A stretch of DNA of 64,000 nt from Escherichia coli (GCF_003334785.1 NZ_QOWV01000003.1), one strand, 5' to 3'. Counted from the first letter of the stretch, positions 18,919 to 48,972 are shown. Notes: a model not told the origin generated them from the letters alone. Translations and numbers: made by a program.

Positions 18919-18958
18919 TTGAAGATTGCCGGGGATATCCACCCGGCAATGTGTGAAT

Positions 18959-19220
18959 GCCTGATGCGACGCTTGCCGCGTCTTATCAGGCCTACGCCAG
19001 ACAGCGCAATAGCCTGATTTAGCGTGATTTTGTAGGTCGGATAAGGCGTTTATGCCGCATCCGACATCAACGCCTGATGCGACGCTTAACGCGTCTTATC
19101 AGGCCTACGCCAGACAGCGCAATAGCCTGATTTAGCGTGATTTTGTAGGTCGGATAAGGCGTTTACGCCGCATCCGACATCAATGCCTGATGCGACGCTT
19201 GCCGCGTCTTATCAGGCCTA
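18959..19220. repeat. BIME: tandem array of REP-containing units (period about 113 bp, about 2.3 copies)
   Basis: Unit GCCTGATGCGACGCTT..CGCGTCTTATCAGGCCTAC...GTAGGTCGGATAAGGCGTTTA.GCCGCATCCGACATCAA repeats at 18959, 19072 and 19185. Confidence 0.9.
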
Positions 19221-20005: not shown

Positions 20006-22153
20006 TTACGCCAGTGCCGCTTCGCGCAGGCGAGTTTTCAACTTGTTGTACTCGTCAATCACGTACTGCTCGGCGGCGCGCTGATCGGCGATCGGCTCGA
20101 CGCGAACGGCGCAGTATTTGTACTCCGGCGTTTTCGTAATCGGGCTTAAGTTTTCAGTAACCAGCTCGTTACAGGCACCAATCCACCACTGGTAGGTCAT
20201 GTAAATCGCCCCTTTGTTCGGACGATCGCTGACCTGCGCACGGGTGATAATTTTGCCTTTACGCGAGTGCACCCAAACCAATGCCTCATCTTCAATACCC
20301 AGACGTTTGGCGTCTTCGGTATTGATTTGTGCGTAGCCAGGTTCATCAGCCAGCGCCGCCAGTGCCGCACAGTTACCGGTCATCGAACGGCAAGAGTAGT
20401 GACCAACTTCACGCACCGTTGACAGTACCATCGGGTACTCGTCGGTGAGTTTGTCGATTGGCGCTACCCAGTCGCAGGTGAAGAACTGCGCCAGACCGTT
20501 CGGGGTATCAAACTTCTCTTTAAACAGATAAGAAGTCCCCTGATCGGCATCTGAAGTATCGCGGCAAGGCCACTGAATGAAGCCCAGTTCGCCCATTTTC
20601 TCGTAAGTCGCACCGTAGAAATCCGGGCACAGATGACGCAACTCATCCCAGATCTCCTGGGTGTTGTTGTAGTGCATCGGATAACCCATACGGGTGGCGA
20701 TTTCACTGATGATTTGCCAGTCCGTTTTCAGATCCCATTTCGGTTCAACCGCCTTGAAGAAACGCTGGAAGCCACGGTCAGCCGCAGTAAACACGCCTTC
20801 ATGCTCGCCCCACGACGTTGACGGTAAAATAACATCCGCCGCCGACGCGGTTTTGGTCATAAAGATGTCCTGAACGATAACCAGTTCCAGATCTTCAAAG
20901 GCTTTACGTACTGCCGACAGCTCCGCGTCAGTTTGTAGCGGATCTTCGCCCATAATGTACGCGGCACGCACTTCGCCATGCGCTGCGCGGTGCGGCAGCT
21001 CGCTGATGCGATAGCCGGTATGCGCTGGCAGGCTTTCCACGCCCCAGGCTTTGGCGAATTTCTCGCGGTTAGCCGGATCTTTCACGTACTGGTATCCCGG
21101 ATACGTATCCGGCAGCGCGCCCATATCGCAGGCACCCTGAACGTTGTTCTGACCACGAACCGGGTTAACACCCGCATGCGGCTTACCGAGGTTACCGGTC
21201 AGCATCGCGAGGCTGGTCAGAGAACGCACGGTTTCCACGCCCTGGTAGAACTGGGTTACACCCATGCCCCACAGGATGGCGGCGCTTTTCGCCTGGGCAT
21301 ACATCCGTGCCGCCTGACGAATCTCACTGGCGCTGACGCCGGTGATATCTTCAACCGACTCCGGCGTGTAGCCTTCAACGATTTTACGATACTCTTCAAA
21401 GCCTTCTGTACGTGAAGCGACGAACGCTTTGTCGTACAGATTTTCTTCAATAATGACATGGCCCATCGCATTCAACAGCGCGATGTTCGAGCCGTTTTTC
21501 AGTGCAATGTGCATGTCAGCAATGCGCGCGGTTTCAATTTTGCGCGGATCGCAGACGATAATTTTCGCCCCGTTACGTTTAGCGTTAATTACGTGATTCG
21601 CCACGATTGGGTGGGAATCCGCCGGGTTGTACCCGAAAACGAACACTAAATCGGTATTATCAATTTCGTTAATAGCATTGCTCATTGCGCCATTACCGAC
21701 CGATTGGTGCAGACCTGCAACCGATGGGCCGTGTCAGACACGAGCGCAGCAGTCAACGTTATTGGTACCAATAACGGCGCGCGCAAATTTTTGCATTACA
21801 TAGTTGGTTTCGTTACCCGTACCACGCGAGGAGCCGGTCGTCTGGATGGCATCCGGACCGTACTTCTCTTTGATGGCGCTCAGGCGCTCGGCAACGTAAT
21901 TCAGTGCCTCATCCCAGGAAACAGGTTCGAGTTTGCCGCCACGCTGGCGACGGATCATGGGGGTTTTCAGGCGCGGGGTCAGGATCTGGGTATCGTTAAT
22001 GAAGTCCCAGCCATAATAACCCTTCAGACACAGGGTACCCTGGTTGGTTTTCCCCTGCGCTGCCTCCGCCCGGACGATTTTGCCGTTATCGACGACCAGG
22101 TTGATTTTGCAACCTGATGCGCAATAGGGGCAAACCGTGACGACTTTTTTCAT
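20006..22153 (-). CDS. fdhF: Formate dehydrogenase H, selenocysteine-containing molybdoenzyme (in-frame UGA = Sec140)
   Basis: Track ORFs 21734-22153 and 20006-21685 are in the same frame, separated by one in-frame TGA (plus-strand TCA at 21734-21736); combined 715 codons; N-terminal CPYCASGC Fe-S motif. Confidence 0.95.
21690..21736 (-). other. SECIS stem-loop directing selenocysteine insertion at the fdhF UGA
   Basis: mRNA reads UGACACGGCCCAUCGGUUGCAGGUCUGCACCAAUCGGUCGGUAAUGG directly 3' of the UGA, matching the fdhF SECIS as I recall it. Confidence 0.85.
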
Positions 22154-22202: not shown

Positions 22203-22222
22203 TATGCATCTTTTATGCCACA
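22203..22222 (-). promoter_or_regulatory. Sigma-54 (-24/-12) promoter of fdhF
   Basis: Minus strand TGGCATAAAAGATGCA (TGGCA-N7-TGCA) upstream of the fdhF start; FhlA upstream activating sequences expected further upstream, near 22270-22345. Confidence 0.7.
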
Positions 22223-22350
22223 TTTTATGTGGGGTCATTCCCTGATATTACGGGCACTATTTATTCAAAACTCTGACGAAAAACAGGCTGTCGTCAGTTT
22301 TGACGTGACGAAACGAAATACCGCGTGACAGCCATCACGCGGCAGACATT

Positions 22351-45229: not shown

Positions 45230-46017
45230 TCAGATAAAGTGCTTACGCAACCGTTGAGAGAGGAAATCCAGCAGGCTGACCGTGACGATGATAAGCACCA
45301 TCAGGGCGCAGGTTTGTTGGAACTGGAAACCGCGAATCGCTTCCCACAGGGTGACGCCGATCCCGCCTGCGCCGACCATGCCGACGACGGTCGCCGAGCG
45401 GACGTTGGATTCGAAGCGATAGAGGGAGTAGGAGATCAGCAGTGGCATCACCTGTGGCAGCACGCCGTAGAGGATCTCTTCGAGCTTGTTGGCACCGGTG
45501 GCGCGAATGCCTTCCACCGGGCCGGGTTCAATCGCTTCCACCGCTTCGGAAAGCAGCTTGGAGAGCACGCCGGTGGTGTGGATAAACAGCGCCAGCACGC
45601 CAGCACGCCAGCGAACGGGCCGAGGCCGACGGCGACCACGAACAGCATGGCGAAGACCATTTCGTTAATGGCGCGGCAGGCGTCCATCAGGCGGCGAACG
45701 GGCTGGTAAACCCACCACGGCACCAGGTTTTCGGCGCTCATCAGGCCAAAGGGGATGGAGAGAACCACCGCCAGCGCGGTGCCCCAGACGGCGATTTGCA
45801 GCGTGACGGCCATTTCGGTGAGGTAATCCTGCCACTGGCTGAAATCGGGCGGGAAGAAGTCGGCGGCGAACGTCGCCATGTTGCCGCCGTCTTTGATCAG
45901 CGTAAGCGGGGCCATTTCCGCGCCCTGCCACGAGACGACCAACACGGCGAGTACAACGGCCCAGCTCAGAAGCGAGAACCAGCTGCGCTTGGGTGGGGCG
46001 ATGGTGATGGTTTGCAT
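45230..46017 (-). pseudogene. phnE: Phosphonate ABC transporter permease PhnE, frameshifted by an 8-bp tandem duplication
   Basis: N-terminal ([23 protein letters not shown]...) and C-terminal halves lie in different frames; GCCAGCAC GCCAGCAC tandem copy at 45591-45606; span 788 nt = 780 + 8. Confidence 0.9.
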
Positions 46018-46030
46018 GTTTGGCTCCGGT

Positions 46031-46120
46031 CTGTAGGCCGGATAAGGTGCTTGCACCGCATCCGGCATCAACGCCTGCACATTGTCGGATGCGACGCCGG
46101 GGCGTCTTATCCGACCTACG
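46031..46120. repeat. REP element pair between phnD and phnE
   Basis: GTAGGCCGGATAAGGTGCTTGCACCGCATCCGGCA and GTCGGATGCGACGCCGGGGCGTCTTATCCGACCTAC. Confidence 0.85.
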
Positions 46121-48528: not shown

Positions 48529-48592
48529 GATGGTGACCTCAGTTAAGAGAAGCCAGTTAAGTGTAGTTCGAAATTTATACAGATGAGAGGCG

Positions 48593-48972
<380 letters not shown>

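Follow-up and report, generated by a model that had tools for sequence, protein, structure and literature searches.

The fdhF gene of Escherichia coli has been known since 1986 to carry an in-frame UGA codon that is read as selenocysteine (Sec); it is the founding example of such recoding in bacteria, and its selenocysteine insertion sequence (SECIS) serves as the reference element. As described for E. coli, the fdhF SECIS comprises nucleotides (nt) 15-31, lies 11 nt from the UGA and has three bases, U17, G23 and U24, that are essential for binding by SelB (PMC8659212). Bacterial SECIS elements (bSECIS) in general are recognised by an apical loop of 3-9 nt with a G within its first two positions, by an upper stem of at least 4 bp and by a distance of 16-37 nt from the UGA to the loop (PMC13188914). 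In the formate hydrogenlyase complex, as resolved by electron cryo-microscopy, the Sec of FdhF is a ligand to the molybdenum in the Mo(MGD)2 cofactor (PMC9474812). Here we describe the fdhF gene found on the minus strand of a 64-kb stretch of E. coli DNA (64,000 nt of NZ_QOWV01000003.1, the whole of which is referred to below as the window). The window almost certainly carries E. coli fdhF with a UGA at codon 140 that is read, together with its SECIS hairpin, as Sec. The recoding at this locus is real, had been correctly interpreted and is already known, with nothing scientifically new in it; an initial annotation made from the sequence had described it as well known biology, and textbook E. 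coli fdhF is indeed what the analysis returned.

The fdhF reading frame and its SECIS hairpin

The complete fdhF coding sequence (CDS) occupies 20006-22153 on the minus strand and translates into 716 codons, made up of 715 residues and a terminal stop, with Sec at codon 140. The sole internal stop in this interval is the TGA of that codon (minus strand 21736-21734; plus-strand TCA at 21734-21736). Around it the minus strand reads GCT CGT GTC TGA CAC GGC CCA TCG GTT GCA GGT CTG, continuing from this CTG with CAC CAA TCG GTC GGT AAT GGC GCA ATG. A mechanical list of open reading frames (ORFs) gave two minus-strand ORFs across the same interval, one at 21734-22153 (139 amino acids, aa) and one at 20006-21685 (559 aa), which lie in one frame because the difference between 22153 and 21685 is 468, or 156 x 3. 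The initial annotation had claimed that the two listed ORFs were a single 715-codon frame with an in-frame TGA, and the translation of 20006-22153 bore this out; the plus-strand coordinates that it had assigned to the TGA also proved exact.

The product of this frame, with X at position 140, was 100% identical over residues 1-715 to the formate dehydrogenase H (FDH-H) chains of PDB entries 1AA6, 1FDI, 1FDO, 2IV2 and 7Z0T, and position 140 is a non-standard residue X in those identical chains. It scored 1089 bits over residues 6-685 (cut-off 666.25) with the NCBIfam equivalog model TIGR01591, which describes the FdhF-type formate dehydrogenase alpha subunit. Cys8, Cys11, Cys15, Cys42, U140, His141 and Arg333 were all found at those positions of the window FdhF; of these, we take the four cysteines to be the [4Fe-4S] ligands of FDH-H, and His141 and Arg333 to be catalytic. 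At the DNA level the gene recurred with 100% identity as the annotated fdhF of many RefSeq E. coli genomes, and of 5426 complete genomes of the species 5420 had fdhF. The peptide ...NNVDCCARV-Sec given in PMC4513850 also matches the window. With the sequence, the X at position 140 of the solved structures and the molybdenum coordination described in PMC9474812 taken together, the UGA at 21734-21736 (minus strand) is almost certainly decoded as Sec, the molybdenum ligand.

The initial annotation had placed a stem-loop directly 3' of the UGA and had likened it to the fdhF SECIS, and both statements were confirmed on folding and on comparison with Rfam. The full extended SECIS hairpin lies inside the CDS at 21687-21741 (minus strand), where the Rfam model SECIS_2 (RF01988) matched over its whole length (1-55/55) with 87.1 bits (E = 1.4e-18, cmscan), the curated gathering score for this model being 70 bits. 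The minimum free energy (MFE) of the 55 nt around the TGA was -17.5 kcal/mol, in a fold with the same topology as SECIS_2, and that of nt 1-41 was -14.2 kcal/mol, where the U of the UGA is counted as nt 1. In this numbering the apical 17-nt mini-helix, GGUUGCAGGUCUGCACC (nt 15-31; 21706-21722, minus strand), which according to the literature is the part bound by SelB, was evident both on direct reading and in the fold. Its stem (nt 15-21/26-31) consists of 6 bp and one bulged U, with the bulge at U17 (21720) or at U18 being thermodynamically equivalent, and it carries the loop GGUC at nt 22-25 (G22-G23-U24-C25; 21712-21715), in which G23 is at 21714 and U24 at 21713. The spacer between the UGA and the hairpin is 11 nt (nt 4-14) and the distance from the UGA to the loop is 18 nt. 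The window hairpin thus shows all of the features published for the E. coli fdhF SECIS in PMC8659212, and with its 4-nt loop, 6-bp upper stem and 18-nt distance it also falls within the bSECIS limits given above.

The hairpin in Sec-type and Cys-type homologues

Conservation of the hairpin was followed beyond E. coli by a genome scan with one genome per species, using the pattern NNVDxCARx-TGA-His and leaving the sequence 3' of the His codon unspecified. The scan returned at least 120 TGA stretches, from Thermodesulfobacteriota, Chloroflexota, Nitrospirota, Bacillota, Actinomycetota, Enterobacterales and others, and the frame remained open and homologous past the TGA in all 120 stretches listed. 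Among the matches listed there were 118 distinct TGA sequences, 103 of them non-enteric and 15 enteric-type. When 18 loci were re-scanned with SECIS_2 at Rfam gathering thresholds, hits were found only in the close enteric loci L033 and L037, with no hit in the 14 non-enteric loci or in the divergent enteric-type loci L109 and L120. Since Rfam was unable to classify the wider set, base pairs were counted directly. Across the 103 distinct non-enteric sequences the stem formed by nt 15-21/27-33 around a GGUCU loop was paired in 89% of cells, and sliding the 3' partner by 1-3 columns lowered this pairing to 23-60%. Double-change cells numbered 82 compared to 27.5 in shuffles, and the covariation score was 0.421 compared to 0.186 (0 of 500 shuffles reaching the observed value). 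At pairs joining third codon positions, 18-30 was paired in 96% and 21-27 in 94% of sequences, compared to 57-60% in shuffles (0/5000). Within the enteric-type group, nt 15-31 were invariant in 14 of the 15 distinct sequences, with variation at synonymous sites outside this segment (nt 12, 33, 42, 45, 51 and 57), and in the remaining, divergent sequence (L120) the two changes in the stem, G15-C31 to U-A and U18-A29 to A-U, were both compensatory. This covariation and the constraint at synonymous sites indicate that the hairpin is under selection across phyla.

In a further enteric-type sequence (L109) the lower SECIS stem was broken (His-Arg-Ser-Val, CGC UCA GUG) and the apical hairpin was unchanged, an arrangement consistent with the lower stem being dispensable.

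Alignment with Cys-containing formate dehydrogenases, which the initial annotation had proposed as a check, placed Cys at the column of residue 140 in PDB homologues 7qv7_S, 7bkb_D and 9wxb_B, and X in 1aa6 and 9t1s_L. As a control, metagenomes were scanned with the same pattern but with TGY in place of TGA, giving 118 distinct Cys-type sequences in the NNVDxCARx[C]H context. The codon for Gly147, the third base of which is loop U24, was GGT in 106 of 115 Sec genes (92%), compared to 8 of the 28 Cys genes matched for the V-x-G-L context (29%; Fisher p = 1.3e-11), and an invariant Gly codon 18 nt further downstream in the Sec genes had no such bias (40/28/39/8). Pairing in the Cys genes was only 46% at 18-30 and only 43% at 21-27. 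The mean MFE of nt 13-36 was -10.5 kcal/mol for Sec and -6.0 kcal/mol for Cys sequences at equal GC content (Mann-Whitney p = 2.7e-7).

No selA, selB, selC or selD and no tRNA gene was found within the 64-kb window. The initial annotation had suggested looking for the selenocysteine machinery elsewhere in the genome, and this was followed up with selAB, selC and selD queries taken from K-12 and searched in complete E. coli genomes: selAB was found in 5426/5426, selC in 5425/5426 and selD in 5426/5426, so that essentially no complete E. coli genome is without them. Strain 300709, which has an fdhF 100% identical to that of the window, is among the genomes carrying them. Linkage of selC to a client gene was seen in Acetobacterium fimetarium (L078), where a tRNA-Sec gene (847-939, plus strand; Rfam RF01852, 68 bits) lies approximately 1.4 kb upstream of the in-frame TGA (at 2305) of a formate dehydrogenase.

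For the source strain of the window we infer from the literature that SelB binds the hairpin, how the ribosome then proceeds and that Sec is in fact inserted. Within the formate hydrogenlyase complex, FDH-H is the subunit that oxidises formate. As the ribosome nears the UGA at codon 140, the mRNA just downstream would fold into the SECIS hairpin, the apical mini-helix of which (nt 15-31) would be bound by domain 4 of SelB carrying Sec-tRNA(Sec) and GTP; owing to the fixed length of the 11-nt spacer the Sec-tRNA would then be set over the UGA in the A site, leading to Sec insertion instead of termination by RF2. The Sec140 produced in this way would ligate the molybdenum of the bis-molybdopterin guanine dinucleotide (bis-MGD) cofactor. 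In published work on an fdhF fragment spanning residues 130-156, Sec insertion reached approximately 30-40% both in vivo and in vitro, with the ribosomes that failed to insert Sec being terminated by RF2, and having Sec-tRNA(Sec)-SelB-GTP bound to the hairpin before the ribosome reaches the UGA was found to give Sec priority over RF2 (PMC4513850).

None of the observations contradicts reading the UGA and hairpin as a Sec signal, but the evidence has limits. The folding energy of the element is ordinary (z = -0.63 compared to dinucleotide shuffles, with 44 of 200 shuffles folding as well), and among 703 segments of fdhF compared by folding, the 41-nt segment that begins with the UGA comes only 59th; folding energy was therefore rejected as evidence for the SECIS. 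The 61-mer that contains the TGA recurred at 100% identity in 5408 of 5421 E. coli records, and a control 61-mer just upstream did so in 5406 of 5421. Conservation within E. coli was likewise rejected as a test, being non-discriminating when the SECIS and the upstream control are equally conserved. A downstream control 61-mer was less conserved (100% identity in 4351 of 5420 records), and the most divergent E. coli SECIS variant sampled, from strain 14EC007, had two synonymous changes, both outside the apical hairpin. The cross-phylum sequences are related to one another and so are not phylogenetically independent, the Sec set was drawn from genomes and the Cys set from metagenomes, which are different collections, and just 28 Cys sequences have the V-x-G-L context. 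The sel genes, with none lying in the window, were checked in related genomes. Support beyond chance is provided by the covariance-model match, by identity to the experimentally studied element and by the cross-phylum covariation.

An alternative in which the TGA is a true stop, making fdhF here a pseudogene by nonsense mutation or else two genes of 139 and 559 aa, is suggested by the two ORFs of the mechanical list and by several deposited annotations that show the same division. We regard it as very improbable, given that the TGA-containing 61-mer is identical in nearly all of the E. coli records cited above, that homologous frames are open past the TGA in all 120 listed stretches from many phyla (although the scan pattern itself required a TGA there), and that conserved residues, His141 among them, are encoded by the 16 codons that separate the TGA from the next ATG. 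The solved FDH-H protein is moreover a single 715-residue chain, and the 559-aa piece alone would be without the [4Fe-4S] domain and the molybdenum ligand. The conserved TGA, the continuation of the frame across phyla and the single-chain structure effectively refute the true-stop, pseudogene and two-gene readings alike. That the TGA arose by sequencing or assembly error is more improbable still, and is refuted by the identical sequence in thousands of independently sequenced E. coli genomes.

It is equally hard to credit that the UGA is read through without Sec machinery, by near-cognate tRNA-Trp or tRNA-Cys to give Trp140 or Cys140, with the hairpin being incidental. Low-level, SECIS-independent misreading of UGA does exist and Cys homologues are widespread, but such misreading is low without selenium (PMC4513850), the sel genes are found throughout E. 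coli, and the residue at position 140 is X in the solved structures. The synonymous-site covariation and the 92% use of GGT at U24, both absent from Cys homologues, would be unexpected for an RNA with no role. Sec-independent read-through was rejected on this ground, as it fails to explain selection on a hairpin that the Cys homologues lack, and SECIS-directed reading of the UGA as Sec is the reading that we retain.

Split gene calls and other features of the window

With the recoding signal lying inside the reading frame, ORF callers for which UGA is only a stop split fdhF into pieces of 139 and 559 aa. The N-terminal piece, codons 1-139 (21737-22153, minus strand), is the 139-aa ORF that ends at the TGA, and the C-terminal piece (20006-21685, minus strand) is the 559-aa ORF starting from Met157. 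As Met157 is the next in-frame start, codons 140-156 between them (U-HGPSVAGLHQSVGNGA; 21686-21736, minus strand) are lost on splitting, and the 17 codons dropped include those of Sec140 and the adjacent His141. Automated tools are known to mistake genes for selenoproteins for truncated ones, as a 2026 review has noted (PMC13188914). The exact 139-aa (P0016) and 559-aa fragments have been deposited as proteins, each on at least 1000 contigs, and bear UniRef and GenBank names such as 'Formate dehydrogenase H'; the 90% cluster of the 559-aa fragment has 11,377 members, including Raoultella, Citrobacter, Klebsiella and Enterobacter. Among related contigs, a Citrobacter koseri metagenome contig (L005) was called as 139-aa and 559-aa genes, and a Raoultella assembly (L006) had only the 559-aa gene. 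No contig was found for the Klebsiella (P0006) and Enterobacter (P0008) fragments when their exact sequences were looked up. The initial annotation had called the locus a real annotation trap; the deposited fragments agree with this, but the RefSeq Prokaryotic Genome Annotation Pipeline already gives a single 2148-nt fdhF CDS. The practical value of the locus is as a positive control for ORF-based scans and as a reminder to merge UGA-split ORFs.

Two further observations were made on the records that carry fdhF. RefSeq records differ in the product name that they give to this gene (NZ_AP043637.1 and NZ_CP048307.1 were noted), with one record having 'formate dehydrogenase N subunit alpha, selenocysteine-containing'. 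Records typed as plasmids, one of 94 kb among them, carry four fdhF copies, and these may be mis-assigned chromosomal pieces.

The neighbours of fdhF match those of K-12, with mdtP upstream and yjcO, gltP and nrf downstream, and fdhF is annotated at the same relative position in K-12 and in other RefSeq genomes. Approximately 50 nt upstream of the fdhF ATG, a sigma-54-type -24/-12 promoter-like sequence, TGGCAT-N5-ATGCA (22205-22220, minus strand), was found, which is not a recoding signal and which we take to be the known sigma-54/FhlA-dependent fdhF promoter. The adjoining region at 22250-22350 contains repeated TCGTCA/TGACGA-like motifs and a hairpin after mdtP. Elsewhere in the window, phnE (45230-46080, minus strand) is split into overlapping ORFs that are in different frames (45230-45598 and 45448-46080), matching the phnE1 pseudogene annotated in K-12. 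Two small RNA families were also found, sraL/RyjA adjoining soxR (1051-1191, minus strand; 153 bits) and STnc630 (54634-54799, plus strand; 182 bits). In strain 300709 (L001, 12086-13803), nrfE is annotated as a frameshifted pseudogene.

Comparison with known systems

The closest described system is fdhF of K-12 (b4079) with its SECIS (RF01988). The protein is identical, relative coordinates and neighbours are as in MG1655, and the window element matches the full model with every published feature; the gene itself shows no difference. Around the gene, identity of the window to MG1655 (from about 4,276,876 onward) is 99.94-99.96% and not 100%, so that the DNA derives from a close relative of K-12 and not from MG1655 itself, and repetitive extragenic palindromic (REP) arrays elsewhere in the window differ in copy number. 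These REP/BIME-type repeats (Rfam naRNA4) lie at 18956-19220 and 48592-48968. The gltP-yjcO spacer is approximately 340 nt longer in MG1655 than in the window, and the yjdN-yjdM tandem array, of four copies in the window (48592-48968), has two more 100-nt units in MG1655.

The other two selenoprotein genes of E. coli, fdnG and fdoG, encode FDH-N and FDH-O; they belong to the same superfamily and share the Sec molybdenum ligand and the combination of UGA and SECIS (PMC13188914), and PDB 1KQF was among the structure matches of the window FdhF. Their products differ from FdhF in being periplasmic, exported by the twin-arginine translocation (Tat) pathway and approximately 1015 residues long, and they fall in a different NCBIfam family, TIGR01553, which scored only 247.8 bits on the window FdhF against a cut-off of 814. 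Neither fdnG nor fdoG is present in the window. Cys-type formate dehydrogenases (FdsA-type NAD-dependent enzymes and the FdhF of the Thermoanaerobacter kivui hydrogen-dependent CO2 reductase, 7QV7) have the same fold and the CAR-x-[C/U]-H motif, but carry TGY and not TGA, with no GGT bias, no conserved pairing of nt 16-32 and weaker local structure.

The loop GGUC and the 18-nt distance of the window element agree with the bSECIS consensus of Zhang and Gladyshev (as given in PMC13188914). The enteric fdhF hairpin has a 4-nt loop and a bulged U17, whereas the hairpins of the 103 non-enteric formate dehydrogenase homologues are mostly unbulged, with 6-7 bp and the 5-nt loop GGUCU. The residues encoded by the 3' arm differ as well: E. 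coli has His149-Gln150, whereas Ala-Ala or Ala-Thr is found elsewhere, with Val or Leu where the 5' arm has codons for Thr or Ser. It is conceivable, though we think it unlikely, that the enterobacterial SECIS is a lineage-specific derivative of the unbulged GGUCU-pentaloop form, with its 3'-arm residues dictated by RNA pairing and not by enzyme function. The hairpin in the SelB-SECIS structure of Moorella thermoacetica is probably of the unbulged GGUCU type. A literature search with the exact string of the majority-type (unbulged GGUCU) hairpin gave no match; much of this reading, and the difference between the two hairpin types, is probably contained already, if not spelled out, in earlier work on bSECIS elements and in the SelB-SECIS structures of other bacteria.

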